From the NCBI GenBank assembly GCA_012295275.1, contig CM022676.1:13640001-13704000 (forward strand): a DNA stretch of 64,000 nucleotides, in the 5' to 3' direction. Source of the stretch: Chrysomallon squamiferum. Lineage: Eukaryota; Animalia; Mollusca. Positions 1,278-39,139 of the stretch are shown one piece after another (the first letter of the stretch is position 1; each line of letters opens with the position of its first letter). The position numbers and the translations under genes were made by a program. The notes beneath the pieces were generated by a model. That model was not told the DNA's origin. It worked only from the letters and a program-made list of their open reading frames with translations, and did not search any database.

Positions 1278-1581
1278 CATCACAACAATAGTAATAGAAT
1301 GTTAATGGCACATAATCTAATCATTATAGGTGACAGTAAAATATCAACTTCATTTGCTATTTTATTAGCCTTAACATGAACTAACAGAAGGTGAACTCCA
1401 AACAAAAGGAAAATAGAAATGTAAACCAATATACTTAAGACTTCATTGCTTTCCTAACAATGAAACAGGTTTTGAAATTCTGAAGTTTGACAATGTTAAT
1501 GCTTATTTTTTGTCACTTGACCAATAAATAAAGGAAACGAAAATGTATGACTGAAATAAGGCCAAATAATTCACATTAAAA

Positions 1582-1612
<31 letters not shown>

Positions 1613-3862: not shown

Positions 3863-5783
3863 ATCTATTAAAGCAAAATTAATAAGATAATGGTATAAAC
3901 TGTATTTATGTTTTGAGTTTTTAAAATAATAATAACAAAATTAAAGAGAATTTTTTTTTTGCTGCACTGACAAAATAGATATACTTGTACCATTATATTA
4001 CATAAATATATAAATGTAATGCATTATATGAAAAAAAGAAGAAAAGTTTGATTATATCCAGTGAAAATGCATAGCAGTTTAGAAACCTTACCTGACAATT
4101 TTTAAAGATAGAAACTTAATTTCAGTTAAGTAAATTGAAAACACTTTTTAAAAATGGAATTAGCAGTTTTTAGATTAATAGTTTATGAAATGTCACAGTA
4201 AAAAGTTTGGATTTGGTTAAAAATGGCAGACGACCTATTTTTGGATCAAACTAAACAAACTGGATATCATTGGAAATGGAACTGGCCAAGTTTTCCAAAC
4301 AACTTTTTTACTTGTTTTTTTTTTTTTTTTTTTTTTTTTTTCATCACATTGTTCTTCCTTTTCAATGTATTGACATAATAAATTACATTTTCATAATCTT
4401 GACCTTGAAATAAAATTTATTTTATAATTGGCTATAATAATTATAATAAAAAATAAACAACAAAAAAATAAAAATAAAAATTCAGAGTTAAATTATTTAT
4501 GTTATCAATCCACTGAAGGCTATCAAAAATAAGTTATTAACAGTTCAGTCTTCATTAAAATCTGCACTGGGAACATTATTCTTCTTACAGTCATCACTGT
4601 GTATGCAAGTTCGTCCCAAATCTTGGGTTATCCTCTAGATGACTGGTGTAAGTGATAAAAACAGCAGTGAATACATATATGTCACAACTTACAAGTGCAA
4701 ATTCAGGTTCTTTTTCAAACCCAATACTCAGCCAAGCTGTGCAATATGAAACACTGGTAACTTGTTTGTGGTTTTCTCTGTATAAGGTTGCACACTGAAA
4801 TCTTGCAAAGGAAAGGTTCCTCTTCATACACCATATATCTCACACATTTATGCAATAATCCACTGTAGCAAATATTCATACATACTCATTGGCATCTAAA
4901 CCATTGTCATATGTCTTAGTTATTGTCCAATCATCACTTACAACCAATTCTTACAATGCTAACAGATATACTTAATCCTACAAGAAATAGTTCTAACAGA
5001 GACATACCCAAGTACGTTTTGGTTTATCTCAACCGAGTGACATACAAATTTATATTTCATGTAGGTTTACATATGTTATAAAGTTTAATCTCATTACATA
5101 TATAAAGTTTAATCTTTCATAACTCATGATATTACTGTTGAACATCATGCTGCTATGTATAAAATACATTCCTGAAAGGTGATTTAAACCCAGACAAACC
5201 TCATGAAGATAATTGTATCAATTATCCTGTTCTTACCAACAAATCTACTATCAATCAAAGTTGTATCATTGGTTGAGAAACATGTATTCATGCATTTGGG
5301 CAGCTTATATGAAAGGGAAATTCATTACTGTGGGCACAGACTTCAATTTCACCAATGTGGTTAAATTATTCGGAATTCATACTTTCAACAACTCTTAAAC
5401 TGTTATGTTTCGTGATTTTTGCATTCTCTTTTTTCTAGCAACTTTTGAAATCAGTCAAAATGACCATTATTAAAAATAAAGTTAAACAAAATAATAAATA
5501 ATAATAATAATAAAATGAATAATAATAATAATAAAGAAAAAATAAATAAATAAAAGGAAAACAATTTTTTTCAATAATATTTATGTTAATTTTCACATTT
5601 AAAAATGTCTTCAAACTTCCCCACAAAAAAAAAAGTCATCAGAATCACAGAAAAAAAAAAAATGTTATAATAATGTATTTTTTTGCAATACTTATCTATG
5701 ACAATTTACAAGAATGTTTTGGTGAAGATTACTATATACTCATACAGAAATATATAAAACAAAATCTATTTTTTCTTTTACAG

Positions 5784-6140
5784 CTGCATCACTGAAGATA
5801 TCTGGTTCTTTGTCTTATGCAGTGTTGAATGAGAAATTTACATTTACTTGTACTGTGTCACAGGCTGCTGGTCTTACTGACTCAGTAATATTTTATAAAA
5901 TACAACAAGGAAAAAAGAAAGAAATAGGTTCTCTCTATCAGACTGGTGATACATGTTCTTTATTCAATGATGCTCCTGGCTACACTCCAGTGTGTGGAGA
6001 AGGGACAGACGTTGGATCATCAAGTGTAAAGAACTACACACTGACCATAAACAGAACTTCAACTGATGATGAAACACTCTGGTGGTGTGAACTGTTTCCA
6101 GCTTTAAAGAGGAGCAACAATTTTACTTTACCTGTTTACT
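5784..6140 (+). CDS. Gene A exon: N-terminal V-like Ig domain (D1)
   Basis: cag acceptor at 5781-5783; FTFTC...YTLTINRTSTDDETLWWC; 357 nt, same length as the gene B counterpart. The donor reads ATAAGT instead of GTAAGT. Confidence 0.8.
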
Positions 6141-12100: not shown

Positions 12101-15100
12101 ATGACTCAACACAAGGACAGAAAATGTTTTTTAACATCACCAGTCTCAAAGACAAAACAGTTTATGATGTCAGAATTTCAGCTGAAAACACGAGGTCTTC
12201 AGACAATATGAGCAATTATGTCACCATTCAAGTAATTACAAAAGGTAAACATTATCTATTTTATTAAACACACGATAGAAACTGCCACTCCATCTGTTGC
12301 TATTAAAGGAAGTAAAGATACATTGTTAGTTTCAGAACAGTGATATTATTGTTCATATTCTTTATCAATTACAGTTGTATAAAAAGAAGAATGTTATTTT
12401 ATATGTTATTTATGAGTTACAGTGTTTTAATAAGTAGAATGTTATTTTATATGTTATTTATGAGTTACAGTTTTAGAATAGGAAAATGTTATTATATATG
12501 TTATTTATCAATTACAGTTTTAGAATAGGAAAATGTTATTATATATGTTATTTATCAATATTTATCAATTACATCTTTAGAAGAGCAAAATGGTATTATA
12601 TTTTACAGTTGTTATTTATCTATTACAGCTTTAGAAGAACAGAGTGGTTCTAGTTCTCTGCTTGGTGCAGCTGTAGGAGGAGCTGTTGGTTCTGTGACTG
12701 TCATTGTTGTCATAGTGACACTGATTGTGTTACTTAGAAGACGGGTATTACCAGGATTGTCCACCAAAAAAGGTATGGTTATACAGCTTGTAAACAGAAC
12801 AATTTTTAAAAATGTATTGATTATATTCATTATATGAGAACTCTAATAAATCAGCAAACAAATCTAAGAAACAAAACATCACTTTATTGTGAACTTCTAT
12901 TATTATGTTGATATCACTGACTTGTGACTACATGGCTTGCATGTTGGCATTGTTTTAGTATATATTTTGTGTGTTTTTATGTGATTAATTTTTTCAAATA
13001 GTGATGTCATGCAGATTTTGAAAAAGTTAAGAAAAATAATGTTTTAGCATACTTCTTTTAATATAAAGCCCTACCATGTTTTCTAATCATGTTTTTATTT
13101 TATGTATTTTATTATTTTATATAATTTTAAATAATTTAATACAGTTACTTAAATAAGTGGTATTTGATGTATAATGAAGAAAATAATTATAAAATAAACA
13201 TTATATTATTTGGAATAACTACTGGTTGTTTATTAATCTTGAACCAGTGGATAGAGAAATCTCTTTTTATTTCTTCTTTCCTTTTTAACTAATTTTAGAA
13301 TTTTTTTTTTATTATTGCTGACATTTTTATTCCTGTTAATTTTTTATTTCAGGAGAGGATATTGACATTGCTTTGTGAGTATATTTTCACTATTGTTGTT
13401 GTTGTTAGTGTTATTATTATAAATATTATTAATATTATTACTGTTTTTGTTATTAAAAGGAGATAAGTGAAAATAAAACAAATACATCACCGTAATTTGT
13501 TATTAATTCTCCTGTTATTCTATCTGTAGATGACTATAATAAATAGTTTTTATGTTTGTATCTCTACAGGCATTATTTATGTGCCAATGTAAATTCTTTC
13601 TTTCTTTGTGAGGAACATAATTAGTTAACTTTTATTACTTATTGATGCAACTCACATTCGAACAGTCTTCATTTAGGTATACCAAATGTGTACTTAATAC
13701 TGATTATGATATTATTTAAATGTGCCTTAGGTAACCCATTATAAAACATTTACATGCAGATTATCTGACATAAACAGATAACCTGAATTTGGCCTAGGTA
13801 TTCATTTAAAAACTGAACAGATTCCAGATTTGAACAAAATATAAAACTAAGGAAGTGAAAGCTGACAAATTGTATTTACAAACTGAAATTAAAAAATATG
13901 TGTCAGTCAGACCTCAATACCATTTGTAACATTAATATTATGATAATTTAAAATGAAATTCTACTTGCTATACAGTATGTTTATTTGAACAATCAAATTT
14001 AATAAAATAATGAGACATCTGTAAAAGCTTAGCAATCTTTAAAGAATAAAATTTTGTGTTTCTTATAAAATACCAAATAACATATAATAAAAATTACACA
14101 AACATTCCATTAATTTTCCAGAACATTCCCAACCCTAAGAAATTAGTGTAAAGAAATAGTCGTCTGCTTTTGTGCTCACCTTGTTAAAAGAATAAGCAGA
14201 AATTTTCATCACATTTTATTATGTTTTATCTCTGTTTGACAACTACATATCTGTTTTTTTATCTGGAATTTATACTTAAGTATCATATTTTTAAATTTTT
14301 AAAGAAAGGCATGGTTTTAAAAAAAAAAAAATCTGTTTATTTGTGGATTATTAATGGTAATTATAAAATATTTTTGATTTATTGTTTTACATTCTTATTT
14401 TTGTTTGTGACATTTGTATACTAATCCTGTTCAACTCAAGACAGTCTTATTTTGTGCTGTCATGTAGGATCGATTAAGAACACAAAATAATACACATATG
14501 TATTTCCATTGGACAGAAATCCTGGACATATATTAGTATTAATACAAAATCCATAATTATTGTTAAAGTGATCCATGATTATTTTCTAATGGATTTCACA
14601 AACTTAGAATAAGTGCAGTGACTAAAGAGTGATGTATGTATAAATGATAAGAGAAATGGAATCTACATTCATATGCTGTTGTGTGTTTTACTTCCTATGG
14701 TATAGCACATGCATGATTAGTATTGAACTGATATATATATATTTGCATGCTTTTATTTTTTGAAGATTCTTAATTCATATATATGAAATTTAAAACAATC
14801 TTGCGTGTATGTGAAAAAAATACTCGTAAAGCCATATTTTCATACATTTACTAAAAACTAGTAGCTGTTTAGAATATATTGCAAGGTATAATGATTATAA
14901 AAACAGTAACAGTAATAAAAAGATAGAAAATATTTTTAACATCTTCACAGTTTTATAAAGCTGCAGATAATTAGTTTGCTTATATTGTATAATAACTGAT
15001 TTTTTAAAACATTCTTTCTTTATTAATATTCTATTGTGATATATTGTCCAATTTATACGCTATGGGAAAAAAAATAAAAAATAAAGTTGGAATGTAAACA

Positions 15101-18100
15101 ACATAGCATAACATATATGACATTGTTTGAACATGTTTTTGTTAAATATCCATATTATTTTATAATTTATGCTTTGCCATTTTCATTAATAAAATTTAAT
15201 ATATGTCTTTGTAGAAAATGCTTATTAATTAAATATATCATTTACATGAAGTTTGTGTAAAAAAATTCAAAGGTGTAAATTATTTAGACTGTTTTTTCAA
15301 AAATAAATTTCATTCGATGCATGAAACATTTTAATGAAAATTATTGATTTTAAGTAAAGTAAGCTTTCCTTTTTCTTTCAAAATGATTTAACAATTTATC
15401 CTTTGAAGATTCTTTTGTTTGCTTGTATTTTACTAATTTTACATCCTTCATTTGAAGCCATCTTCTGATATCCCATGCTTTAATTGGACTTAAAAAAGCA
15501 ACCAACAGAATACAAAATTAAAAGATGATAATAATAAATAAAAATAAATACATAATGAAAATAATTTAATAAATAAAGTAATTAAAAAACAAAAGTTTTA
15601 GTTCTAGAACACAATGAATTGTACTAAATGAATCGTGATGACAGATTAAAGAGTCGAGTAATGCCAGGTGTGCATCATAAAAATATCATGTAAAACTAAA
15701 ATACTCCAATCAGGATATGAAACATAATTAACTCGAGAATCCAATAGAAATAAACATTGATCCTGTTTTGGCTTCAGTGTTGGAGGATAATGATTTGTAT
15801 TTCAAGTCTGATGACATAAATGTTTAAAAAAGCAAAGAAAAGAAGAAATGTAATAATATTAATAATGAAATAATTAATAGATAATTCATCTCTTCTGAAT
15901 GTATCAGTAATATTTTGATCATTCCAAATAATTAAATATGTCCAAATAAAGTAATTCTAATTTTAATTTTATTATAAGCTTTACTGTAGCATTGGTTTAT
16001 TTATTTAATTATTTATTTATATTTTTTTTGCAAGATGCTTTATTTTCTTCACAGTTAATATTCCTTCTTTTTTATTTGTTTCCCCTCCAGTGTTGGAAGA
16101 CAATGATTTGTACTTTACATCAAAAGATAACAGTTTAAATAAATCAAGACAATCAGGTATGTATTAGTTTATTTATTAAAAAAAAAATTAAAATAAAAAA
16201 ATAAAAAATAAAATAAAAGTAAAATAAATATTTGTTCTGAGAGTATATAATAATATAAAAGTCAAAATTGTTTTCTTACTGTATATACAGCTCATCAATT
16301 ATTGTTACTGTTAAAAATATGTTAATTTACTTTTAGCCATATTCATATTAAAACAATGCTGTATACAAATAAGTTGAAATATGATAATGAATATGATTTC
16401 CTCTTTGTTTAACTGTTAAAAAAGAGTGAATATTAATGTGTACCCATCATTATCTATCCATCCATTAACTATCAGTTATCTATTTCTGCTATATTTTCCA
16501 GTCTAATTTTGACATGTCTGGTGTATTATTTTAATAATTTTATGATGTAACACTAAAACAACAACAACAACAACAACAATACTACTACTACTACTACTAC
16601 TAATAATAATTGTTATAATAAAGGATACCAACCCACCACCACACCTGAAAACATCTCATACAAGATTTCCTTCCTCAACAATACCAGTGCATATTTGTCT
16701 TTTTGTTTTAACTGTTACAACATTTGGTACATAAATTTTGATTTACTATCACACATTGTTCATTTCAATTTTTTTAATGAAAGAGAGAAACGAACAATAT
16801 CAATAAACAATGAAACAATACTTATAATAATACTAATATTTTAGCTTTTATTGGTTTAAAGAATTACATATTTTCAGAAATGAGATATTTCATATTTATA
16901 ATATACTTTGCTCAAAGAGTCAAGTGTCTGGTGTTGCTAACATTTTTATATTTAATTAAGTAACATTTGTTTAATATGTTGTATTTAATACAGCAGGAAA
17001 TGATTCAAGTCAAACTGATACTCAGCCAAGCACAAGTTCTGGAGTGACAGCTGAGAATCCTGAAAGTCAGTATTCTGTTGTAAAGAAAATAAAGACTGGT
17101 CAGTCTACAGCTAATCAGAGTAAAGAAGGTAATAAAAACAATTAAAACAAATAATAGGAAATAACAGAGAGGGCTGTTTGGGACTTTGGGCATATTATTA
17201 ATGTTGAACTCTACATTTTCTTAGATGTTCTAAATGTGTTGACATCCGGTGATGTCCTGACTGACTTTGCTAAATGCCATCAGTTAGTCATTGTTTAGTA
17301 AACCATGAAATTATAAAGGGACCCAAATTAATTGAAATTTGTAAAGATTTTTGTTTTATAAATATCTCCACACACTTTATATTAAATATTTATTAGGTCA
17401 TCATAACATGTTGTTGTATTTTTTATTTATTTATTTTTTTATCTTCTGCAGTCCATAACCATAATTATTAGTTTCACAGATAAAATTTGTTGACTGCATC
17501 ATTAATAAAAAATCTGCCTTTCTTTGTTTAATCTCTTAATTGTTAGTTAAGAAAAACAGATAACTGTTTTATCAGTTAATGTTACTTCTCCCACAAATTA
17601 CAGGTAAAAAAGGTCAAACAGAATCTGCCAATCAGAAAAAAAAGAAGGAAAAACAAGATTTGACGTTAAAGAAAAATGAAAAAGAAACGAAAAAGAAAGA
17701 AAAAGGTTTGTAAATTGAATAAGTAGGGTTATGTGATGAAGTAATTTACAGTAACTTTTAATAAGTGATATCAAATAGGTCTTTGTAACTTCTGATATCA
17801 TGTCATCCTTCACAGGGAACCTACCCAGGTAGTAGCAACTGACTTGAGATTAGTCACGCGGGCACAGATAGAAACTCATACACTCTCTGACATAATTGAA
17901 TAATACCATAATAAACATAATATTACTTGTCACAACAATCACATCAGAGTTAAACAAAGTGCCAAAAATGTAGTTACCTGCCTGAACTTTAAAGTTTCTC
18001 ATGGACAAAAAATCTCCCCATGTGATTCCATCAGTCTCCCTCCAATAATCTCATTGCTTATGCCAAAGAGTGGAAAAGCCAGGTGACTATGTATTAAGCA

Positions 18101-19548
18101 AGAAGACATACAGTCTTATTTTCAACTAAACACAAAGTATGTTTAATAAACAGACGATAACATCTTGATCAACAACACCTTCTGTGTCAGGGATACATTG
18201 ATGCCAAGTGGCATTACATAATCTAATTAGAGACTAATACACAACATCAGTATAGATACACTCAATAGCTGGTTTTCTTGCAAACATATTAATGTATATC
18301 ATAAATTATTTGTATTTTTATTTGCTGATGATACTGTACTGTTATTAGTAGAAACAGCAGATGATTTACAACATCAACTACACCTTTTAGTAATTTAGAT
18401 ATAATTCAAGACTTCATCTCAAGTTTTGCAAATATATATTATGAGTTAACAAGCTCTATGATTTGTTGTGAATTAGGAAGATATACGATGTTATAAGTGT
18501 TAAAGTAAGAATGATTACATTTTGGACAAAGGTTGTTAACTGTAAAGAGCATAAATTGTCAGGTGTACTGTTCATGTTGTTATCGTATAACCATAGTGTA
18601 AATGCTGTATTAAGTCCTTGGTTATCTTCTATAAAAGCTATATTAGATGAATGTGGTTTATGTAACACATATTCATGAGTGCAAGTGGATGTTTTGTGGT
18701 TAAAACATCCTGATTAACTTGAGTGATCCAAAGTCATTAATTACAGAATGTTTAAAGATGAATTTAAATTAGAACATTATCTGTTAAAGCTGCCAACAAA
18801 AGGATGCTAGAACATTATGTGAATTTAGAACCAGTAACATTAAACTGGTAGATGGTTTAGTATTAAAAGAGAAGTCAGAATGTAATTTATGTCATTCTGA
18901 TACTGGTGATGAATTAACTGTACATCTTTATCTGTTAAGAGAAACAAAATATATACCATATTATTATACACTTAGACCAAATATGGCAAATGCAATTTTC
19001 ATTTTCTAAAACAAAAAAATTACTTTTGAGTTAACTTTCCAGATTGTTACAAATTATCATTCAAAGAGTCATTCTTCTGGGTTAAATTATAATTAATATG
19101 TTTTGTACCACTGTAGAAAATATTATTTAAATTACTGAGAGTTTATATGTTCTCAATACTGTCCATGGCTCTGTCTTCAGAGAAATAAACGTTTTGTCAA
19201 TAGTTATTTTGATCTTCAACATTGCATCTAAAAATGTATTAGTATACCAGTGTTGGATCTTTGCCTTTGCTTTTGAGTATATATATATATATATAGATAT
19301 AGTAGTATGTCTGAAATTTAGGTTCCTTTACATAATTTAGTGTCAAGCTATTGTTTTTTTTTGTTACTGAATTTATTTAATATATATGTATTAATTTTAA
19401 ATATATATGTATGCATGTGTGTGTGTATATATATATATTTAATACAAACATTTTTTATGACAGAATAATAATAATAATAACAATAATAATAATAATACAA
19501 TCATTAAGCAAAATTCCATTTAATTTAATATTCTAGATACACTTTTAC

Positions 19549-19579
<31 letters not shown>

Positions 19580-21284
19580 ATTATTTCTGTAGGAACTGAA
19601 AAGAAAGTGAAGCAAGGACAGAAAGGTTTTATTCAGATAATTTATATTTTAAGAAATGTTCATGTGTGCATGAGATTGTGTGTGTGTGTGTGTTTGTGTG
19701 TGTCTGTGTATGTGTGTGTGTATTTATAATATCACGCAGAAAAAATATTTATATAGTAATCCTTATGGAAAGAAAATATATAAAATTATTTAATACTTTA
19801 TGTCATGTTAGTATTCCATTGTTGTTAATATTATTAGTAGTATTATTACTATTTGTTGTTTATTTTGAAAATGTATTTTGAAAATTGCTTAAGGCTTTAA
19901 ATAAATATTTTAATATTACTACTTATTTCTTGACATGACAGATAGTTACATAGAAACTCTTAATTTCAGTAGTTTTTATTAATGATAATTATAGAAATTT
20001 CTGATGATAAAAACATGGTCTGAAAAGGGAACTATCTGAAGCAAAAATATTTATTTGGAATTTATCAATACATTTATCAATTTATCTGTGATCATATTCC
20101 ATTTGACTCACTAATATGTTACTTTTGTACAGGAGATGTTTATGAAAATGTTGATGCTGTAAGGGATGATGGTACATATGCCAATGCAGTGTTTGAAGGA
20201 AAGGGAGCTACAGGTCAGAATATACAGGTAATAAATCTACATTTATGCACACCATTTATTTATTTAAATATGTATAGAAACAATAAAAAAAATAATTATA
20301 TATATATATATATATATGTATATATTGTTTTTTAAATTAAAAAATAAATAAAATGATGGAATAGACACCTGAATCCATGGTAAATAAAGGATAGTTTTTA
20401 CCAATATTATGCCCAGTAAAAACAGATCTAACAAGACCTTGGAAAACTTTGAGGCCATTGACATTGCGATTGGTTCCAAATATTGAAATTGATGGCAAAG
20501 AAAATGAAAACAAATAAAATAAATGGTTTCCAAAAGATTTAATTTATTTAAAGTTTTGTAAAAAAAAGAAAAAAAAAACAAGAAAAGAAAACAAAAAAAG
20601 TTCAGTCTCTTTATAATGTGAGAGAAAAAAGAAGAAAAATGAGAAAGAAAATCTGTCTCTTTATTAACATCACCTTGACTTTTTTTGAAGGAATGTATAA
20701 ATATTTGCTCAGAATTTGTGTGAATTTGGATAATGTTAAATTGTATTTATTTAATAAATAGATAAATGAGTGTTTTTTTAAAAAGTTAAATTTGTGTGTA
20801 TTAAATAAAAAAGAGTTAATTTTGTATTTTTCATAAAAACAAAATTAATTAAAAAAAAATTATAATTTAAAAAAATTAGGTTTGTGTGTGTTTAAAAAAA
20901 TGTTAAATGTGTGTGTATTTTAAAAAGTTAATCATTTGTGTAATTAAATACAGACAGTCAGTGCTTAGCCATTTTTGAGGTGATAAAGGGGGAAATGATA
21001 TAAAGATGAACGATCTGACTGTAGTCTTAGAATTCAAAGACATTTCTTCAGGGTTTCATATTAAGTAGTTATGTTTTTTGTTCTTTTTGTTTCAGGGAGC
21101 AAAGCATGACCGAGATCAAGATGGTTTGCTGTATGTTGGTATAGATTTCTGTAACACACAACCAAGTAAACAAGTTCACAAAACACAGGACAAAGTGGAG
21201 TACGTCTCCATTGACTGGAACAAGAAAGCAGAACCACTTCCTGATGAAGATGACAAACAAACAGAACCTAAGAGTGAAAAATAA
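5784..21284 (+). CDS. Gene A: multi-Ig + FN3 type I membrane receptor with ITIM-bearing tail (inhibitory type); possibly pseudogene or null allele; leader exon not found in window
   Basis: Exons: 5784-6140, 6335-6595, [7096-7370 frameshifted], 7860-8147, [8533-8811 with TGA], 9293-9580, 9996-10262, 10452-10748, 11603-12244, TM 12629-12772, 16091-16156, 16997-17128, 17604-17705, 19593-19625, 20133-20227, 21096-21284. All junctions are phase 1 except the last (phase 0), and intact exons join in frame. Confidence 0.8.
6335..6595 (+). CDS. Gene A exon: Ig domain D2
   Basis: tag|...|gtgagt, 261 nt; GPDSV...SVDC...CSYSW...LRLTNISRNEAGNIYMC. Confidence 0.85.
7096..7370 (+). pseudogene. Gene A Ig D3 exon copy a, 4-nt deletion frameshift
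   Basis: 275 nt versus 279 nt in copy b and gene B; ttcatttcagg versus ttcatggctaacagg near 7272-7282. Confidence 0.8.
7860..8147 (+). CDS. Gene A Ig D4 exon copy a
   Basis: cag|...|gtaagt, 288 nt open; SLIC...GNPPATFHW...DDNEDKYKC. Confidence 0.8.
8129..8326 (+). repeat. ~47-bp minisatellite made of the D4 exon 3' end plus splice donor
   Basis: Unit cttcaactcaatgtctactgtaagttatacttcaatttaactatcta, about 4-5 degenerate copies. Confidence 0.8.
8533..8811 (+). pseudogene. Gene A Ig D3 exon copy b, in-frame nonsense codon
   Basis: 279 nt with intact splice sites, but GGA>TGA at 8622-8624 (STTG*NPKP versus STTGGNPKP). Confidence 0.8.
9293..9580 (+). CDS. Gene A Ig D4 exon copy b
   Basis: 288 nt open, near-identical to 7860-8147. 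Confidence 0.8.
9562..9845 (+). repeat. Second copy of the ~47-bp donor-site minisatellite
   Basis: Same unit after D4 copy b, about 6 degenerate copies. Confidence 0.8.
9996..10262 (+). CDS. Gene A Ig D5 exon
   Basis: 267 nt; LTLTCTADSNP...W...LKNLSRDNSGSYTC. Confidence 0.85.
10452..10748 (+). CDS. Gene A Ig D6 exon
   Basis: 297 nt; INCSADGRP...SYQDSGTYQC. Confidence 0.85.
11603..12244 (+). CDS. Gene A exon encoding Ig-like D7 plus fibronectin type III domain
   Basis: 642 nt; DDTGTYKLSVCNEVGC, then PPLPP...VFLSW...FILQYK...LKDKTVYDVRISAEN (FN3 W/Y/L pattern). Confidence 0.88.
12350..12640 (+). repeat. ~45-bp minisatellite made of the TM-exon splice acceptor
   Basis: Units like atgttattatatatgttatttatcaattacagttttagaataggaaa resemble the true junction gttatttatctattacag|ctttagaagaacaga. 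Confidence 0.75.
12629..12772 (+). CDS. Gene A transmembrane exon
   Basis: 144 nt, phase 1-1; LLGAAVGGAVGSVTVIVVIVTLIVLL followed by the stop-transfer RRR. Confidence 0.85.
16091..20227 (+). CDS. Gene A internal cytoplasmic-tail exons (16091-16156, 16997-17128, 17604-17705, 19593-19625, 20133-20227)
   Basis: Each has AG/GT ends and keeps the frame: LEDNDLY; ESQYSVV; Lys-rich GKKGQ...KKKEK; GTEKKVKQGQK; DVYENV...TYANA. Confidence 0.7.
18310..19190 (+). mobile_element. Degenerate non-LTR retrotransposon (CR1/L2-group-like) 3' fragment in a gene A intron
   Basis: FADDTVLLLVETADDLQHQL; ELGRY...VKVRMITFW; SPWLSSIKAILDECGL; EFRTSN...CNLCHSDTGDE; ends at aataaa. Confidence 0.7.
21096..21284 (+). 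CDS. Gene A terminal exon with two ITIMs
   Basis: ttcag|GGA phase 0; GLLYVGIDF and KVEYVSIDW both fit (S/I/V/L)xYxx(I/V/L); ends at TAA. Confidence 0.85.
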   Translation, partial: GAKHDRDQDGLLYVGIDFCNTQPSKQVHKTQDKVEYVSIDWNKKAEPLPDEDDKQTEPKSEK

Positions 21285-25669: not shown

Positions 25670-26110
25670 TTATACTGTTGCAGATCGAAAAATAATTGTA
25701 AATAAATAAGAAGTAAAAAAGTAAATAAAATGTAAAAAGAAAAAGAAAAATAGATAAATAAATAAATGAATAAATAAATAATCATAAATAAATAACATAA
25801 ATAAATAATAAAAAAACAACAACAACAAAAGACAAATTAAATTGTGTAAATATTTACAACCTGTTTTCTTGACGTTTTCATATAGATGAAGTTTAGTGTA
25901 ATCTGCTGAACCTCTCCTTTCCTGTAGTCCTTCGTATGTTTCATTTGTCTGATCAGCCTCAGATACATCTTCTGTAAATTACAATTAATCATTTCGTAAG
26001 AAAAATTTAGCTAAAATGTTAGTTAAACATTTATATTTTGTGAGACCAATATAGTCCAACAGTTATGTATGTGTCACTTACTTATATTTTTAATTCTCAG
26101 TTATAACTAA

Positions 26111-26158
<48 letters not shown>

Positions 26159-29100
26159 ATTATTATTATTATTATTATTATCATGTAGAGTATCTAAATA
26201 AATGATTTTACAGTTGCAATAAAATAATCATAAATTTAGCTGTTATAGAAGATTTACCAGATCTGGTTTGTATCATTACTGGTCTGAGACTTATATCATA
26301 TCTGCAAGAAGAAATCACGATTTTAAAGTATCTGCATCAAAATAAGTGTGCATAACAGACAGACAGGTCGTAACAGATTAAACAGTTTTACTGAAGGAGC
26401 ACTGAACATGAATATCTGTATGAAATAGACATTTCCAGTACCAACAAGTTGTTTGTTCATGCTGAATCTAAAAATGCAACTTCTAAATTGTTATTTTGTT
26501 ATTGTTGGCATTTAAAATTGATAGATACCTGTGAGTAATACTGTTAGACATACTTTTTTATTTGTTGCTGTATAGCAAATTACAAGTTGAACAAACTAAA
26601 ACATACTGATTTTTTACTAAGTCTGTATTTAACAGTTTTTTATGTCAGCGTTGATAATAGTTACAACTTGCCAGGCAGATTAAATTAGAAGTAAGCAAAA
26701 TAAACTTACGCAGATAATCCATTTTTGTTACCTGCTAAAAAATAAAATGCCTGAAGTTTTGTAATCTTTGCAAGCACAAATATTTGCAAAGATAGATGTA
26801 TGCAGACACATATACATATATTTGTCAAATGAGTAGAAATTACATAATTATTATGTGAAATATTCTGATCTGCTAGCATTGTGAAAATAAAACTTTAAAT
26901 TTTTTGTAAATTATACAACTTAGATATTTACATAAAAAAGTATTTCATTTAGTCAAACAGAAATTTGAATCAATTTCATTATGTTACTTTCACCATTTAC
27001 ACAACTTATTAATTTTTCATTTACTTTATTTTTCTCTGTTTGCAAAAAGTAAAGGTAAAATATTCCTTGCAGTTATATTTTAAAAAGAAAAGAAAAAAGA
27101 AATGAGAATACAATAGAGAGAAGACTATTTCATTACAGAAACACAAAAATCAGTATAAATGTTATTGAAACCTTGTTTACAGATATATCCTTTTCTTCTG
27201 AGTATTTCAAGAATTGCATACATCACAGAAGCAGCAAGAAAACCTATCACAATCCCAACTGCTATACCACCTGCATCACCTAGTTTGTCTGACTGCACTA
27301 AACAAGCTTCTTCATAACAAACACCTGCATTAAAAATATTACAAAAATACCACAGACACACATTTACTGTGAGATTATCTTTGAAATCAACCATGTTAAA
27401 TAAGAAAGTATAAAATAATAATAATAATAATCATAGCGAAGATTCAAACTTGATGGAAATAATCCCCTTTTGTGATGATAAAAAATTTGTACTAGTTTAT
27501 TTTTGTGGCAAATGGTTACTTTTGTTTTTGGCTTTTTTTTAATGCTATAGTACCCCGTTTCACGAACCTCTTCAACCTAAACCAAAATATAATTATCATT
27601 TCAACTCCTTGGGTTCATCATAGACATGTATTTCTGCAAAACAACAAAAAGAAATTGGTCTTCGTTTACATACTTCAACTGAAATAATTTAAAAAAAAAG
27701 AAAATTAACGTTTACCATTCCTATTTTGAAACATCACAAAGATCTATATAGGTTATAATGAAAAGGTTATTTTGAAATTTTTTTGTTATTGTTTTTAAAT
27801 ATATATATTCCACATTTAGAAACTCTAGCACAAACAGTTTTCATACAGCATCTTTCAAAACATGTAATAGCAGTAAAAAAAAAAAAATTATAATAATAAT
27901 AATAAAAACAAAATTAAAATAAAAGGAATAAAGAAAGGCAATGATTAAGAAATACAAATTAAGTTTTATAAATCATATTTCCACTTATTATGGCTATAAG
28001 GGTGCTGTTATGTATCATTATTATCTAAAAAAACCCACCAAAAACACCATGAAACATTTATCTGGAAAAGTTACTTGTTTATGAACATTTTCTAAACAGT
28101 CATACCAAAAACTGAAAAACAATTTTGGTTATTCAAATGTTGTCATTTTCTGCCAAGAAATAAATACTAATGTTATAATAAAATAACTGAATGTCAAATT
28201 AATAGCAACTGCTGGGATGTCAGCTTCTGTGGTATGTTTAATATCAGAGATATGTTTACCTGTTGTAATTACTTGAATTCTGACATAACCGCTCATATTG
28301 TCTGAAGTTCTTGTGTTTTCACCTGAGATTCTGACATCATACACTGTTTTGTCTTTCAGTCTGGTGATGTTAAAAAATATTTTCTGTCCTTCTGTTGAAT
28401 CATCAAACCATTTACTTTGCCAAGCAGTAATCCAGTTAGAGTCACTTTGTGGTTTGTACTGCAGTATAAATCTCTGTTTGAAATTACCACCTGGGTAGTT
28501 AGGTAGCCAGGACAAGAACACTGTACCTGATGTTGATTGTCTTTCTTGTTGGAACTCTTTAGGAGGAAGAGGTGGACCTGCTCCAGTTAGGTTCACAGAA
28601 AACTGAGAACATCCAACTTCATTACAGACAGTCAGTTTGTACGTTCCAATGTCATCTTGTGTGAAGTTTGTGATGTTCAGTGAAATTTTGTATCCTGAGT
28701 CTTTAATCAGTTTGCTGTGAATTTTCAGTGTGACATTTGTCTCCTCAACATTCGTATTATTAAAACTTGTTTCCCTCTTAGAGTTCATCCAGGTATAATT
28801 ATTCATAGTGGGATTACAAAACAAAGTTTTTACTAATAAAACTGGCTTTCCAACTTCAGCTCCCACTCTGTCATTTTTAGGTTCCATAGTGATCTTTGGT
28901 TTTGCTGAAATATAAAACAAACACAAAATTAATTTAAAAAATGTATGTAGTAAACAGCTAAAACAAGTTTCATGTAATTTGTTATAAAATAAACAATAGC
29001 AAACCCACATTAGAATGAGTTGGAATACATTATCTACATAAACAACACAATTCTCATTTTCACAGAGATTTTCATATTATTACATATGACCAGAATGCTT

Positions 29101-32100
29101 GAAACGGTAAATAAATTTAGTTTTGATTTAATATTTCAAGTAATTTTATTAATCTAACAAAAAAGCTAGAAATCATCAAATATATCAGGTTTGCGAGTTC
29201 ATGCAAGGATCAAATGATGAGGAACACATCACTGTCACTGTAAGTGAATTATTTTAACGTCAGGAAACAAGTTATATTAGTGGAAGATTCAGTTCACATG
29301 CAGGAAACAGTGAGGACATTATAAAGTATATTCAGATTAATACAAGATGATCTAAAAAATTAAAGAAAATCTAAAACTTGCTTTGTTATCAGACAGCACA
29401 GTTCATTTTGGACAAAAAGAAAAAGAAAATGACAGTTTTGAAGTTGTAGACATTTGATGTTTACTTAGAAGAATGACTGCGATTTAACTGAACGACTCTG
29501 GCTCTACTGTCCAAACAATGCTGTTTATGACAACTGCTCATGGAAACCAAAGCCCAATAGGTACACGTATTTACATTGCATACAAAAAAGATAAATCTTC
29601 TTTCATGACTAATTTGAAAATCTCTGTTATTTTTGTCAAACATTTCTTCTTTCTTCTAGGAAAACAGAGGTTTCGTTTACTCCAGTCTTTTAAATTACAA
29701 TCGATGAAGAAACACCGTTATCATTACTGTTTTTCATACCTTTAACATAAACGACACTGTAGCTAGTCTGTACCAAAGTTCCACTTCTGTCAGGAATCCC
29801 GTTGTGCACACTACACTGGTATGTTCCACTGTCCTGATATGAAGCAGAAACAAACATCAAACTGTATTTGTTACGTCCAACATGTCTGCCTGTCACTTTT
29901 CTAACAAACACGTCATTCCAGTAATGTTTGAAATCTGAGAAGTTCATGTTGTCAGGACGACCATCAGCAGAACAGTTTATTTTTAGTAACATGTTTTCTG
30001 TTAAATTTTCAGATGGGAAGCTGACATCAGGAGCATCTGAAATAAGTAAAATACAGATAAAGTTTTTCTGTAATTTAATTAATTTTAAAAAAATCAGACA
30101 TTTCAGATATTGTCTTCTCTTACAACTTAAAATCTCAATATCTCAGTTATTTATATAACTGCAGTAATTATATTACAGTGACAATGTTAAGGCAAGACTT
30201 ACAATTGACATTAACTTTAGTTTCAGACGAGTTCAACAGATCTCCATGGATACTGGCTCTTACATTTGCTTCGCATGTGTAACTGCCAGAATTATCTCTA
30301 CTGAGGTTTTTCAAGTCTAGTATTCCATTATTTACTTGAATATCTCCCTCAAATTTCCACTTGAGTTGAACAGAGCTGGGGTTGCTGTCTGCTGTGCAGG
30401 TCAAGGTCAAATCATAACCTTCCTTTACAGGATTTGATTGTGATAAAGATATTGTAATTCTAGGATAATCTAAACAAAATATAAACAAAGTAACGTACAC
30501 AAGACATTTTAACAATACATTACTGAGACAATTATTCACAGGAACAGCACATGACTGAAACACTACTTTGGTAAAACAAAAACAACAATTAAATAACAAT
30601 TGGAGATTGAACAACACCTGTAACAGTTTATAGTTAGACTGAAGGAGACGAATAATCATGAAGATAATTTACAGAAAACACTGAGCTTAAGTTAATATTC
30701 AATCTGAACTACAACTTATAGTGAACATGAGTTTGAGAATAACTTACACCGATCATGTATTGAAATAGATATTCAATCTGAAGTATAACTTGTACTGATC
30801 ATTGAAGTGAAGTAGATTTTAAAGCTGAAGTACAATAAAGTATATATCTAATTTTAAGTATAACAAAATTTGAACTGAAGTATGTAATGAAGTATATATT
30901 TAACATGAAGTATAACTCAAGGTAAATACTCAATGATGTAAATATTGAAGTTGAAGTATAACTTTCAGTAAACAGTGCAGTTATGTAGATATCTAACTTG
31001 TAGATATCTAACTTGATATACAACTTACAGTAAACGTTCAGCTGAAGTATATATTTAAGTATGAATTGAAATATATATATACAACCTTGAAGTAGGTATT
31101 TAACTTGAAGAATAACTTACAATAAACATTCAGTTGAAATATATATTTAGGATTAAGTATATCTTACTGTAAACAAATGCATTGAAGTATATATTTATCA
31201 TGAAGTATGGCTAACACTAAACACCGAGTTGAAGTAGATATTCAAGATTAACTTACAATATTTGTTTTTACACGTAAATATTTCAAGTTGTAATCGTTGA
31301 ATTGCATGTATTTGTGTATTTTAATCCACAACAATAACCAACGACTGAACATTCTGAACTTAGCCAGTAATATATATTGATATGTGTATCAATTACAAAC
31401 AATATAAAATTCACTTACAATAAATAGTCAAGCTTCTGCTTTTTCCCCAGTTGTAGACGCCATACTTCCAACTAGAAACACACTCACACACTTTGTTATT
31501 CTGAGTCCTGTTAGCCATGAAAGATATTGTACACGTTCTGGTTTCTTCTCTGTCAGAGCAGTGTACAGGATTATAACATATCCAGTTCAGATTTGGTTTC
31601 GGGTTTCCACCAGTCGTAGAACAGTCCAGTGTGACAGTGTCACCCTCAAACACAGGAAACGTTGTTCCTGAAACAACTGGAGATGAACTCGGTGGATCTG
31701 GAAATGAAAGAGCAAATCAGTAATTTGTTACACTTTACGTTTGCAAAATGTATTATAGTTTCGGCATAAACTCGTACGAGCAATATCACGTCTGATTTCT
31801 GTGATTTTCTTCTTACTGCTCTTGACATAACTGTAGACTGTTTTTATGAATGTTGGAAGGCGACTGTTTTGTTGAAAGCAGTAAGAGATTGGGAATATTT
31901 TCATTTGCACCAAAAACACATATATTTATCTGATGTCATAAACAAGACAAATAATTTATTAATTGGTTAATTATTAATATAAAAGTATATAAAGAAAACT
32001 TAAATAAAATATAACAATTAAATTTATTACTTAATCACAAAAATATTGTTCTTCTCATTGCTGCTTATTTAATGAAGTTAATTAATATCTTCTGATTAGA

Positions 32101-34269
32101 TCTCTCTTAAGCATATTTAATTTATTCGTTTTATTTTTGTTCCAATTATGTATACTTTTCTTATCTTCATGTAATTATGATTAGCATTCCCATCATAAGG
32201 TTTCTTATTCACGTTGTTCCACTTTTTTCTTATACTTAATATTACGTATGTTTATTCCTAGTCTATAATTTATAACTTTTTGAAATACGTAATTTACACT
32301 ATTAAACAAAATTCAAGAATATTTAACTGTGACAAAAACAAAACATACTACTACTACTACTGCTGCTACTACTACTACTAATACTAATACTAATACTACT
32401 ACTAATAATAATAATAATAAATGTGACAAAAGCACTGTTATGTATTACAGAAATTATTGAGTCTAATATTGTAACAATTAACAAAGCTTTGCATTTAAAT
32501 TTAAAACAAGAAGAGATTAAAATCAATACTCCATTAAGTTCAGTTAATTAGAGGTAAATTCTATTAAACATTCATGTTTTGCAATGAAACTTGAATAACT
32601 CAAAGTAAATTGTCAGTCTGAAGTTGTTTCTTTCAGACTGTTTTGCTTTGGTGTTGTTACTGTAATTTAATACTAGTGAAAACGAGACTCAAAATTAAAT
32701 AGATATTTTAATACAAACTAAATAATATTTAAAAATATAGCTCACAATAAGCTGTCAGTGTCAACTGGTTACTTTTAGTCTCTTTTGTTTTAGACTGATA
32801 CTAATTTAAATGCTATCTATTAAATTTTAACGATGTCAATAATATCAAAGAAAAATCTGAGTAACTCACAGAAGACAGTCAGTGTTACAGTGTTACTTTC
32901 AGACTGTTTTGTTTCAGAGTTCGTCACTGTACACGTGTAAACATTTCCTGCTTCATTCCTGCTGATGTTTGTCAGTCTCAGTTGAGAGTTTGATGTGAGT
33001 TCATCATTTCCCAGCTTCCACGAGTAGGAACAGCTTGGCTTACACACAGCAACACAGTCAACACTGAGACTGTGTCCTTCTACCACTTCAACAGGTGATG
33101 TTAAACTGAGTGCAACAGAGTCTGGACCATCTAAGTAATAAAATTAGAATAGTATTTAATAAACTTTATCTACAGTCTACGTATGGAAATGTAATTTTAC
33201 TTGATGTTACACGCACACAAATTAATATCATTTTATTTAGTTTAATGTTTAACATTGTACTTTTAAAATGATTAAAATTCCAATACTTGTTTAATTAATA
33301 TGATAATTACTTACAATAAACAGGTAAAGTAAAATTGTTGCTCTTGTTTAAAGCTGAATTCAGTTCACACCACCAAAGCGCTTCATCATCAGCTGAAGTT
33401 CTGTTTACGGTCAGCGTGTAGTTCTTTACCCTTGATGATCCAACGTCTGAACCTTCTCCACAGACTGGAGTGTAGCCAGGAGAACGATTGAATAAAGAAC
33501 AACTGTCAACAGTCTGATAGAGAGAACCTATCTGTTGTGTTTGGCTTCCAGTTAGTTTATAAAACTGTACCAGGTCTCTAAGACCGTCAGCCTGTGACAC
33601 AGTACAAGTAAATGTAAATGTCTCATTCAACACTGCATAAGACAAAGAACCAGATATCTTCAGTGAAACACCTATACGGAAACAAATTAAATAATAAATA
33701 CCTTTTAAAATTATAAAAATTGGACACTTGAAAAAATTAAACAGAGTTTATTAAATTGTTTTTTATATTATTATGATGATGATGATGATGATGATATTCT
33801 GTCATCACTAAAACAATTCAAACCGCATGTTAATTATTTCAGATATTCAGTGTCTAACATTTTTCCAATGTACTCGGCCTTCAACCTCACATAATACGAT
33901 GTATTTTGCACGTATACTACCATACAGTCCTCTAGAATTTTGAATTATTTAGTGGTTCTCAGTAAATATCTATGAACCTATTCACATAGTTGTGAAATAA
34001 CGATTTTAATTATCATTCATTACACATTGTACTAACTGGTCACTACAGTGATAACTGTCAGCTGAAACCAGATATTATAAGGATATATAATGTTCTGAAT
34101 AAAGAACAGTGTAAGAGTACGTATATCAATTTGATTTTAATGTGTTATGTGCTATTGTACAGTCAGTAATTATAAAAATGGTTATGGTATAATTCAACTT
34201 GGTCTAGTGTTACGTACATTACTTCAGTTTGAACAAGGAAATTTATTCACGGAAAACAAAATTATATAT

Positions 34270-35290: not shown

Positions 35291-35433
35291 CAGCTCTGAC
35301 CGGCATAAATCTGAATAATACAAATGAATAAATAAATAAATGAATAACCAAATAAAAAAACAATTGAATGAAACTTACCTGTACTACATGTAACAATCAT
35401 GACAGAAACTAGTAAATATCTCAATGGCGCCAT
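25670..35433 (-). CDS. Gene B: multi-Ig + FN3 type I membrane receptor with cytoplasmic ITAM (activating type), apparently intact
   Basis: Exons high to low: leader 35433-35379 or 35023-34972; 33671-33315; 33130-32870; 31697-31419; 30469-30203; 30036-29740; 28904-28260; TM 27324-27172; 26731-26710; 26301-26258; 25971-25861. The terminal stop exon is uncertain (~25674-25670 or 25541-25537). All junctions are GT-AG and frame-consistent. Confidence 0.85.
25861..25971 (-). CDS. Gene B ITAM exon
   Basis: tttacag|...|gttgta, 111 nt; EDVSEADQTNETYEGLQERRGSADYTKLHLYENVKKT. Confidence 0.8.
26258..26731 (-). CDS. Gene B cytoplasmic micro-exons (26731-26710, 22 nt; 26301-26258, 44 nt)
   Basis: Phases 1>2 and 2>1 complement each other: GNKNGLSA + YDISLRPVMIQTRS; donors gtaagt and gtaaat. 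Confidence 0.7.
27172..27324 (-). CDS. Gene B stalk + transmembrane exon
   Basis: 153 nt, phase 1-1; GVCYEEACLVQSDKLGDAGGIAVGIVIGFLAASVMYAILEILRRKGYICKQ. Confidence 0.85.
28260..28904 (-). CDS. Gene B Ig-like D7 + FN3 exon
   Basis: 645 nt; paralogue of 11603-12244 with one extra codon. Confidence 0.88.
29740..30036 (-). CDS. Gene B Ig D6 exon
   Basis: 297 nt; paralogue of 10452-10748. Confidence 0.85.
30203..30469 (-). CDS. Gene B Ig D5 exon
   Basis: 267 nt; paralogue of 9996-10262. Confidence 0.85.
30665..31255 (-). repeat. Orphan copy of the D4 donor-site minisatellite in gene B
   Basis: Reverse-strand units such as cttcagctgaacgtttactgtaagtt and tttcaactgaatgtttattgtaagtt; ends in cagtgttttctgtaaattatc like gene A ~9830-9850. 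Confidence 0.7.
31419..31697 (-). CDS. Gene B Ig D3 exon (intact)
   Basis: 279 nt open; VTLDCSTTGGNPKPNLNW...NNKVCEC. Confidence 0.85.
32870..33130 (-). CDS. Gene B Ig D2 exon
   Basis: 261 nt; paralogue of 6335-6595. Confidence 0.85.
33315..33671 (-). CDS. Gene B N-terminal V-like Ig D1 exon
   Basis: 357 nt; tag acceptor and intact gtaagt donor. Confidence 0.85.
34268..34323 (+). repeat. (GATA)n microsatellite
   Basis: Directly visible. Confidence 0.9.
34972..35023 (-). CDS. Gene B signal-peptide exon (proximal)
   Basis: MAIVGYILVSASIVGYL-G|gtaaat, phase 1. Confidence 0.65.
35379..35433 (-). CDS. Gene B signal-peptide exon (distal)
   Basis: MAPLRYLLVSVMIVTCST-G|gtaagt, phase 1. Confidence 0.65.
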
Positions 35434-35653: not shown

Positions 35654-35680
<27 letters not shown>

Positions 35681-37014
35681 ACGTACTTTTAAAATAACAA
35701 ACTGAACATACAGAAAGGAGAACATTTTAATAACTTTAAAAATATTTTATATACAAATCATTAACAAATGTAACTATTTTAAAGATAAAAAATTCACTTA
35801 AAATAATAGAAGAAAACAGTGAAAGCGTTATTGTCAGGGTTGAAATTCGAAACATTCAGTATATGCATAATTAAGACGTGTACATGGAGCATGGATATTA
35901 AAGCATTTCACACATAGTTTCTATAATGTTATGAAATGTACTCGCGCCCAGAATTAATCTCGAACAATAACTGATTTGTTTGGTTTGTCACAGATAGTTT
36001 TACAAAAAACAAAATCGTATAACAACAACAAAAAAAACAAAATAAAAAATTATATTTTTTTTCTTTATTTGACCATAAGCTCTGGTTGATAACCGTCTCC
36101 AATTTTTTAGCAGAAACAATAATAATAAATATATAGATACCTAACCAAATAAATAATAACCTTTGAAATTCATGTATTGCATCATTGTATTATTTTAAAG
36201 ATTAGTCTCATAATACAGATGAGTTTATTTTAACGCGAATAGTGAAAACCTGGCAGCTTAGTAAGGCACTCCAAGCTGTACGAGTGCGTGAAAGAACATA
36301 AAATACAAGTTAGGCACACGTCAAAATTCAGAGTGTTTTAATGACATCTCCAAACGAAAATTTAACTTTGAACAGACTAAATTCAAACAGATAAAAGCTT
36401 CAATTAAAATAAATAAAGTAGAAACAACACCATAGTTGAAATTTGAAAAAATACATTAAAGCACTTAACGTTTAACAATGAATTTCAATAATTTTATAAA
36501 TATTAAAACACTTTAATAACTGTAAGAACACTAACAACCAACGTCAACACTTTTCTTATAAAAATGTCTTCTTTTCTGAAATGCTTTGAAATGTACTGAA
36601 AATATACCAGCATTCTAACTGATGAGTTACTTCTGATTTGTAATTCTAACACTGTTTACTTACAAATGATAAAAAGTAACTGTCAAAATGTTATAAGATC
36701 AGTCTTTCACACTAAATAAAATATTGTATTTAGTTACAAATTAAATTCTAGAAATATACATATGTATTATATTTCATTTAGAAAAACTTAAAAAGAAAAG
36801 AATCATTTTAATACATATATAAATATACAAAGTAAGTTATAATACTAATAATAATAATAACAATAGTAACAATAGTAATAATAATAATAATAATAATAAT
36901 ATTGAGGATAAAACCCAAAGAAAGAAACAAGAATATAATTTAGATTGTTGTCAATATTTTATACATCTCATATCTCCGTGTTTATCTATCTCTGAGGAGT
37001 CTGTAGATCTACAG
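35654..37014 (+). repeat. Segmental duplicate copy 1 (~1.36 kb), same orientation as 50023-51411
   Basis: Starts in (CT)n then cgtacttttaaaataacaaactgaac; ends gaggagtctgtagatctacag; colinear with copy 2. Confidence 0.9.
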
Positions 37015-39139
37015 CAAACCAGTGATGACTAAAGTGTTGATAAACCTGAAGAAAGATAAAATAAAGATAAAATGATAAACAAAGAATTATTATACACACG
37101 GAAATAGATAAGCACAGACACAGACAAGAAAGGCATACATACATAAAAAAAGACAACATATGTAGATAGACATCATTACATACACTGATACAGACACATC
37201 TTTACATGTACATATAGATAATACATACACACATACATACACAAGTAATTGAAGACAGTCCGACAGAAAAGTAGATATACAGAATCACAGAAACAAACAG
37301 ACTGAGCGATACTAGACATAGGTACAGATGGTACATGCAGATACACTGAGAGGAAAGCTGATAAAATTAATAATACAATAAAATAACTAATAAAAAGAAA
37401 ATAGTTACAAGACTACTTACGTGATTATTGCATAAATCATTGAAGAAAATGTGGAATCGCTTCCGCTTATTGGATCTAAAATAAATTAATAAATAAATAA
37501 ATAATCCTTTAATTACTACCAAATATCTAGCAGCACACATATACTCATATCTTTCAAGCACGTCTATCTCCAGAAGTGAAAGTCTTGTCCCAGTCAAGCA
37601 CTTATATTCGTTCTTAATGACCTTCAAAAATTCAAATGCTGACAACAGTAAAAACCTGTTTCTCAAAGTTTTTTTGCGGTCCTAGACTATTGATTTAATT
37701 GAAATTAGCCTCCGAAAACTCAAAGCAGAGAATAGTAAGTTGTTCTTTAAGCGGAATAAAATTAACTTGCTATAGGTCATCTGTCTATGTAAGGCGAAGG
37801 GCTTCTTTACATAATATATAATTGTATACAGTCCTCAAAGAACTGCCACAGTGAACCATTGACTCTTACTCATTAGTGTTTCTTTGTATTTACAAAGAAG
37901 TGTATTGTGGGAAACATGTTATTTGCAATTTAAATGTGATTTAAGAGAATTGTGCGAATTATGCTTCTAAATATGAATACATACATACATTCATATATAG
38001 ATAGATAGCTAGATATATAGATATATACTTATATATACAGACCTGCACATGTATGTTAATTAGAAGAAACTGCTGTAAATGTTTGAATTCTCTGAAAGTT
38101 AACCTATTTTATTGATACTTTTCAGTTTTGAATTATCAAGGTGTATCTGTGTCTGTACATACATACACACAGTCGAAACTCGTCTAACAGTCAGCTATTC
38201 AAAATCCCACCACAAATTCACACAAAAGCATTTCCTTCTTTAAATGAGCTGTTCTGTGCAGTCACTGGTTTATAACCGCCAGCAGCCAATGTTTTTCACT
38301 GAAAATAATCAACTGAACCTACTATAATGGTCACCGTTTTTATATATTTTAATAGCTTTCCAATGGGGCTAAAAGCAGCCAGAGCCTAATGCTTGCAAAA
38401 TATTTAACATGGTTTTCACTGTTGAGTGTTTAAAACATCCTGTTTTACATACAGGTTATGAATTCACAGAAAAACTCATGATCAAAGAAACAACAACACT
38501 CCGTTTATGAGCAAATCTTTATCTTTTTCTCCATGCAATTCATAAAGTTTTTGTCTGCTTGTAAGCCAAATTAATAGAGGCTATAAAACACTGATTCTGC
38601 ACTGACTGGCTGAACTGTAACTGTCTACCACTAACCAGTTAAAGTGAAAGCATATAACATTGGCTGGGACTTTTACTGAGACTAGGATGTCAACAATGAC
38701 CACTATGTTGGTATCATCCATGTCAGGGTTAGGGCTAACAATGTGATTGTGTTACTTTCTGCTGGATGGTGTTGTTGCTGTTGTCGATTCTAATATAAAC
38801 TTGCATTTATCTCACTCTGTGTCAGTGTGTGTGTATGTGTGTGTGTGTGTGTGAAAGACAGGCATTAAGCTGTACCTTTATCTATGTTAATAAGCATATT
38901 ACTCAATGTGGAACTAAAACAGTAAACATAGTATAAACTTCTTTTAAAAGCTTTTTTTTATATCAGAATTAGAAGATAGAAATAAAGCTATTCCTTGATT
39001 AGTTAAGCAGAATCGACAAACAATCACTGGCATCTAGAAATTATCTGAAATAATGAAGAATGTAGCTAAGTGTACTGAGCTGAAGCAAATAAAAAGTTTG
39101 GAATAAAAAACAAATTAAATTTGAAACTGCTTAATTTGT

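Follow-up and report, generated by a model that had tools for sequence, protein, structure and literature searches.

A linked pair of Ig/FN3 receptor genes with predicted ITAM and ITIM-type tails in the mollusc Chrysomallon squamiferum

Paired receptors are regarded as a means by which vertebrates counter pathogens that turn inhibitory receptors to their own use. In Siglec-5/14, Siglec-11/16 and PILR, linked genes encode ectodomains that are near-identical through gene conversion, and one member carries an ITIM tail (PMC13358205, in the text available). In oysters, CgIgR is described as a single-pass Ig receptor whose cytoplasmic ITAM recruits CgSyk and drives ERK activation and phagocytosis (PMC6994640), and CgNCAM1 as three Ig domains, a single FN3 domain, a transmembrane segment and two ITIMs, binding SHIP2 (PMC11841013); according to the accessible parts of these reports, both tested receptors bind microbes. 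Beyond single oyster receptors, allorecognition genes of cnidarians and tunicates already provide invertebrate examples of ITAM and ITIM tails. Hydractinia Alr genes encode clustered transmembrane proteins with Ig and Fn3-like domains, some bearing ITAMs and others ITIMs, which are allorecognition candidates (10.1101/2022.03.04.482883, available portion), and the Botryllus FF/FcoR genes are described, in the part of the report available, as multigene receptors of activating and inhibitory types (PMC12582321). The available portions of two further papers describe clustered, copy-variable Ig+FN3+transmembrane genes in pearl oyster (PMC9646362) and an expanded CEACAM5-like family in Gigantopelta aegis, there with no mention of an ITAM (PMC7895826). 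The literature searched, mostly outside the subscription journals where shellfish immunology often appears, contained no linked, homogenised molluscan ITAM/ITIM pair.

Here we analysed a 64,000-nucleotide stretch of the C. squamiferum genome (the window), which is AT-rich (GC 24–37%) and contains two multi-exon Ig/FN3/transmembrane genes arranged tail to tail, gene A (forward strand, 5.8–21.3 kb) and gene B (reverse strand, 35.4–25.9 kb). The two are closely linked, A ending at 21284 and the last known exon of B at 25861, and the nearest database relatives of the window are five G. aegis proteins with 57–58% identity. We consider it probable that B, a predicted Ig/FN3 receptor that crosses the membrane once and has an ITAM of its own, forms the activating half of a linked pair with A, whose tail is likely to be inhibitory as predicted from its motifs. 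What would be new is a linked, homogenised ITAM/ITIM pair in a mollusc, with relatives across molluscs.

A and B resemble Siglec-5/14, Siglec-11/16 and PILR in linkage, in the shared ectodomain and in the single long ITIM tail, but the activating Siglec and PILR members signal through DAP12 whereas B has its own ITAM (PMC13358205, available text). Unlike those pairs, A and B contain an FN3 domain, and we do not claim orthology. Compared by description, CgIgR is like B a molluscan Ig receptor with its own ITAM but has five Ig domains, and the accessible part of the report describes no FN3 domain and mentions no ITIM partner (PMC6994640). CgNCAM1, likewise likened by description, has the domain layout of A with an ITIM tail, yet is treated as an NCAM1 homologue, and the available text never mentions ITAMs or pairing (PMC11841013). 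The Alr proteins share with A and B the clustering of invertebrate Ig and Fn3-like transmembrane proteins with ITAM or ITIM tails; in the portion available, their Ig domains 2 and 3 are said to lack paired cysteines and their tails to be too diverse for alignment, whereas the inhibitory tail of A-type proteins can be aligned from gastropods to bivalves (10.1101/2022.03.04.482883). FF/FcoR show the same invertebrate split into activating and inhibitory types, but the accessible text describes heterodimers of a receptor and a co-receptor that bear ITIM, hemITAM or core motifs (PMC12582321), unlike A and B, two receptors that have an ectodomain in common and of which B contains a complete ITAM of its own.

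The model of B (all coordinates on the reverse strand) has 11 exons, every one with AG/GT ends, and 830 open codons, in the order leader, five Ig-type exons, Ig+FN3 exon, transmembrane exon, 22-nt and 44-nt micro-exons and ITAM exon. A predicted signal-peptide exon in this model (35379–35433) precedes five Ig-type exons within 29740–33671, all of phase 1-1 (33671–33315, 33130–32870, 31697–31419, 30469–30203 and 30036–29740), and an Ig+FN3 exon (28260–28904); the ectodomain has Ig and fn3 Pfam matches, the first Ig-type exon (33671–33315) having none. A second candidate leader exon at 35023–34972, of phase 1 like 35433–35379, may represent an alternative first exon. The 153-nt stalk and transmembrane exon (27172–27324, phase 1-1) encodes a hydrophobic core (approximately 27265–27203) free of Lys and Arg, with a single Glu (27208–27206) close to its inner end. 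We weighed a role for this Glu in receptor assembly and set it aside; such a residue is seen in only 2 of 25 ITAM-tailed relatives, at another position.

The tail of B is assembled from the predicted 22-nt micro-exon (26710–26731, phase 1-2), the 44-nt micro-exon (26258–26301, phase 2-1) and a 111-nt exon (25861–25971, phase 1-1) that encodes a 37-residue cassette in which a YxN site follows the ITAM. This chain (27324–27172, 26731–26710, 26301–26258 and 25971–25861) has AG/GT ends and phases 1-1, 1-2, 2-1 and 1-1, in agreement with the complementary phases that a first-pass annotation had proposed. The 22-nt exon is preceded by a tandem NAGNAG acceptor (26734–26731), which permits one-codon variants. 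We found no exon of B after 25861: an 18-nt motif from the reads was unmatched downstream with up to 4 mismatches allowed, and none of 11 candidate acceptors was convincing. Read-through past 25861 would give a low-complexity hydrophobic tail, and we judged it unlikely to be the C-terminus.

The 111-nt exon encodes an ITAM core, YEGL-x8-YTKL (25889–25936, reverse strand; YEGL 25936–25925, YTKL 25900–25889), followed by YENV (25871–25882, reverse strand), a predicted site for Grb2-type SH2 domains, which are specific for YxN. The coordinates, translation and eight-residue spacer agree with the first-pass annotation, which had described the exon as missed by the open-reading-frame track; it lies in fact within a 102-codon stop-to-stop frame. 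The exon satisfies the core consensus Yxx[L/I]-x6-9-Yxx[L/I] (10.1101/2022.03.04.482883, available text). In the extended consensus, as given in the accessible part of its source, Asp or Glu stands three residues before the first Tyr (PMC6994640), and here the expectation of upstream acidic residues failed at that position: the window copy has Asn at −3, and its Glu at −2 is replaced by Gln in every covering RNA contig, in all four RNA runs. Six-frame translation of the window yielded 39 matches to the bare core, 5 of them with an acidic residue just ahead, and shuffling the residues of the exon itself recreated the core in 348 of 200,000 trials. Because the bare core is common in this AT-rich window, the motif alone proved little and outside evidence was needed.

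Such evidence comes from G. aegis. When two G. aegis tails were compared with the window, the ITAM exon was the sole stretch that they matched at E < 0.1 (E from 9e-7 to 2e-5). Full tails are present in two of the five G. aegis hits, the other three being partial or tailless. The two proteins with full tails (P0002, P0003; XP_041379249.1 and XP_041378983.1) carry two tandem 37-residue units each, and each unit contains both tyrosines, both leucines, a 7–8-residue spacer and a following YxN site; one further cassette is found in XP_041379595.1 (P0087). The Tyr and Leu pairs are thus kept in 5 cassettes of 3 G. aegis proteins, as the suggested conservation of both tyrosines and their spacing would have it, and these cassettes have Asp at −3 of the first Tyr. 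As the unit length equals that of the 111-nt exon, the tandem units are likely to have arisen by duplication of one exon. P0003 and B are identical at 433 of 816 aligned positions, part of the micro-exon region included, and the RefSeq proteins P0002 and P0003 have the same type I layout as the B model (leader, Ig, FN3, transmembrane segment, tail), in which the ITAM lies in frame in the cytoplasmic tail. A word-indexed search with the C-terminal region of P0003 matched only P0003 and P0005. With the 40-residue exon frame as query, none of 7 candidates was found at E up to 10; the same search missed the known G. aegis cassettes and is therefore a weak one.

The first-pass annotation had likened the motif to CD79a/b and proposed that B signals directly rather than through DAP12. 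The likeness is a resemblance of motif that gives no homology, the exon finding 0 matches in the PDB at E up to 10; CD79a/b, moreover, have a single Ig domain against the multi-Ig/FN3 ectodomain of B. In the PDB, P0003 is most similar to CEA (E 2e-28), a match that runs through generic Ig repeats. Direct signalling fares better as a prediction: DAP12- or FcRgamma-associated receptors combine a transmembrane Lys or Arg with a short, motif-free tail, whereas B has an ITAM of its own and a hydrophobic segment without Lys or Arg, so that nothing in it indicates DAP12-type pairing. An intrinsic ITAM is also found in CEACAM3 and FcgRIIA.

Parts of B are contained in five sequencing runs, four of them RNA runs from one study, whose contigs were aligned to 25835–26100 only (9 contig records). 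Four of the nine records, from three of the four RNA runs, break at the acceptor of the ITAM exon and then resemble the end of the 44-nt exon, with 23, 23 and 25 of 30 letters equal by hand count and an open frame. The 44-nt>111-nt in-frame junction thus exists in the receptor family, and the exon is present in family transcripts in the predicted frame. For the complete proposed chain 27172>26731>26301>25971, it is this one junction that is seen, and in family RNA only: at 25942 and 25969 no covering contig has the letters of the window, and no two of the three loose ends are alike, which identifies the transcripts as those of paralogues or divergent alleles rather than of B itself. Three of the nine records continue into intron sequence, indicating that DNA or pre-mRNA is present, and two RNA records diverge directly after the YxN site. 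Among 10 variant sites in the exon, the codons of the motif tyrosines and leucines contain only one, a silent change; this distribution is not significant alone.

Gene A (all coordinates on the forward strand) has ectodomain exons encoding several Ig domains plus FN3 (5784–12244), a transmembrane exon (12629–12772; uncharged core approximately 12673–12735), tail exons within 16091–20227 (16091–16156, 16997–17128, 17604–17705, 19593–19625 and 20133–20227) and a last exon (21096–21284) with two ITIM-type motifs, LLYVGI (21126–21143) and VEYVSI (21195–21212), whose tyrosines are 23 residues apart. Together with SQYSVV (17065–17082, in exon 16997–17128) these give three ITIM-consensus sites in the tail, which contains no ITAM; exon 20133–20227 has two YxN sites. 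The seven transmembrane and tail exons are all open, and their product is 56% identical (137/245) to G. aegis XP_041372798.1 (P0007). We built a profile from 11 tails of inhibitory type outside Gigantopelta, picked by a short pattern that A fits too; it matched 1 of 2,844 window frames, the last exon of A, at E 9e-15 over 58 positions. A degenerate duplicate of tail exon 16091–16156 lies at 15778–15816, and the segment occurs twice in the G. aegis counterpart; a tandem NAGNAG acceptor (16994–16997) ahead of the next tail exon permits one-codon variants.

The ectodomain of A is damaged. Its first Ig exon has AT where a GT donor is expected (6141), two Ig exons are broken (7096–7370 by a frameshift, 8533–8811 by a stop) and no signal-peptide exon was found within 1–5783, so that this copy of A may be decaying. 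An internal tandem duplication of approximately 1.4 kb (6992–9767, 90% identical) contains two Ig exons, one type being intact in both copies and the other broken in both. These defects raise the alternative that the whole locus is a decaying haplotype, with B an unexpressed paralogue, A a young pseudogene and the functional pair encoded at another locus, a reading also favoured by the absence of the B letters at 25942 and 25969 from any RNA contig and by a B model that lacks its last exon. We regard it as quite improbable, given that the 11 exons of B are open with GT–AG ends, that the seven transmembrane and tail exons of A are open and conserved in G. aegis, that the damaged exons of A are all phase 1-1 and could be skipped in splicing, and that the RNA runs come from a study other than that of the DNA.

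Ectodomain and tail tell different histories. Identity between A and B in the membrane-proximal ectodomain is 90.4%, compared with 57–61% to six G. aegis proteins, and a tree joins A with B with support 100/100; when ITAM-tailed genes were forced into one clade the AU test rejected the tree (p 3e-33), as it did for ITIM-tailed genes (p 9e-5). Ectodomains cluster by species and tails by type. As both tail types are older than the species split, ectodomain and tail differ in history, and the strong conflict between trees indicates recombination. Across the five intact exon pairs, A and B share 77–95% amino-acid identity, dS ranges from 0.016 (Ig2) to 0.197 (Ig1), and the membrane-distal Ig exon is the most changed; two common introns are 68–72% identical. 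Synonymous rates are heterogeneous among the five exons (p 0.04; Ig1 versus Ig2, Fisher p 0.002). Patchy gene conversion between A and B fits these patterns best. One recent tail swap may instead have produced the pair; the preference for repeated conversion depends on the uneven dS. In G. aegis, ITAM-type and ITIM-type ectodomains are only 70–72% alike, and the end-points of conversion seem to differ between lineages. The transmembrane segment of A (12629–12772) is closer to ITAM-tailed G. aegis genes than to its own ITIM counterpart, and that of B (27324–27172) with the following RKGY is like Haliotis ITAM types.

With P0002 as query, E up to 0.001 admitted 812 proteins, of which the best 150 were taken; from a set of 155 proteins, 68 were kept (at most 1,600 residues, a predicted transmembrane segment, a tail of at least 30) and 87 left out. 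Among the matches listed, 25 of the 68 tails have an ITAM against 0.9 expected, a count that includes P0002 and P0003 and may be biased by the ITAM in the query P0002 itself, and a strict ITIM occurs in 19 of the remaining 43 against 4.8 expected. Scored by ectodomain only, 66 of these 68 listed matches pass E 0.001 and 48 pass 1e-10, the latter including 15 with an ITAM and 16 with ITIMs only. Of 20 relatives looked up, 17 had names and all of these were molluscs, with ITAM types in Haliotis, Pecten, Ylistrum, Mya, Ruditapes, Mercenaria, Solemya and Potamilus and ITIM types in Argopecten, Mizuhopecten, Mya, Dreissena, Mytilus and Sinanodonta. ITAM tails are the shorter, with a median length of 105 against 174, and 18 of 23 distant relatives have a YxN site after the ITAM. 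The activating-tail profile matches B weakly (E 0.04), and ITAM tails hence need not have a single origin. In a 72-row FastTree with long branches, which we used only as a hint, tail labels were interleaved (label changes: ITAM 17 versus 20.8 shuffled, 14/500 as low; ITIM 19 versus 19.6).

The YxxL motif also matches an endocytic consensus, and the tyrosines of B could accordingly serve sorting or single-SH2 docking (endocytosis, Grb2) in place of a Syk-type ITAM, in line with the missing Asp or Glu at −3 in the window copy and the conservation of the YxN site alongside. A sorting signal would need no fixed pair, whereas the half-sites keep ITAM spacing in G. aegis, the cassette was duplicated as a unit and such pairs exceed expectation in related tails as counted above; we therefore rate this reading as very improbable. 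For an ITAM-bearing B, the expected sequence of events would be that ligand clusters the receptor, a Src-family kinase phosphorylates both ITAM tyrosines, Syk or Shark docks on the doubly phosphorylated motif by its two SH2 domains, the YxN site engages a Grb2-type adaptor, and phagocytosis or ERK output follows in haemocytes. Engagement of A by this ligand would instead bring in SHP or SHIP phosphatases, which would weaken the signal, the balance of A and B setting the response to a shared ligand, while patchy conversion between the inverted neighbours would keep their ligand specificities matched, with the distal Ig domain drifting most.

The proposed immune role in haemocytes is drawn by analogy from the oyster precedents. 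The same ITAM/ITIM wiring could serve cell–cell recognition or clearance outside antimicrobial defence, either self/non-self recognition or neural or glial engulfment like that of Draper–Shark. Database names of the relatives (nephrin-, hemicentin-, NCAM- or turtle-like) and the precedent of the Hydractinia Alr candidates (10.1101/2022.03.04.482883, available portion) lend this some weight, but the names are automatic, the fast turnover of the family, the patchy conversion and the preferential change of the distal Ig domain fit an arms race, and the two tested oyster receptors bind microbes, as noted above (PMC6994640, PMC11841013); we consider it unlikely. An activating/inhibitory pair acting in immunity is the reading we prefer. 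More tentatively, and at somewhat less than an even chance, molluscs as a phylum may possess an unnamed paired-receptor system in which repeatedly homogenised Ig/FN3 ectodomains are joined to a modular ITAM+YxN exon or to a two-ITIM tail that is shared by snails and clams. If so, the logic of KIR, Siglec and CEACAM receptors would have arisen independently in a protostome, and the system would be a possible means for molluscs to weigh up self, symbionts and pathogens. The linked pair itself would show paired-receptor design with a gene-conversion signature in a protostome, and would define genes now masked by nephrin-like or hemicentin-like names, also in farmed abalone, scallops and clams.

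The window contains further features. A third Ig gene, unrelated to A and B (42141–39140, reverse strand), has an Ig-like exon without a Pfam match (approximately 42140–41833) and a C2-set exon (approximately 40661–40361; Pfam E 3e-10), followed by a short hydrophobic segment; its tail is long, acidic and contains Tyr, and inspection by eye found no ITAM or ITIM there. On its 5′ side, a Thr-rich frame on a trinucleotide repeat (43173–43526, reverse strand) is either a mucin-like exon or a microsatellite. An open frame running up to a GTAAGT donor (62576–62780, forward strand) appears by eye to be an Ig-type exon and has no Pfam match. A hAT transposase remnant with in-frame stops and a Pfam hAT dimerisation domain lies at 51763–53650 (forward strand), and a 1.4-kb direct repeat with 90% identity (35654–37016 and 50055–51413), one copy of which lies directly upstream of B, is probably a mobile element.
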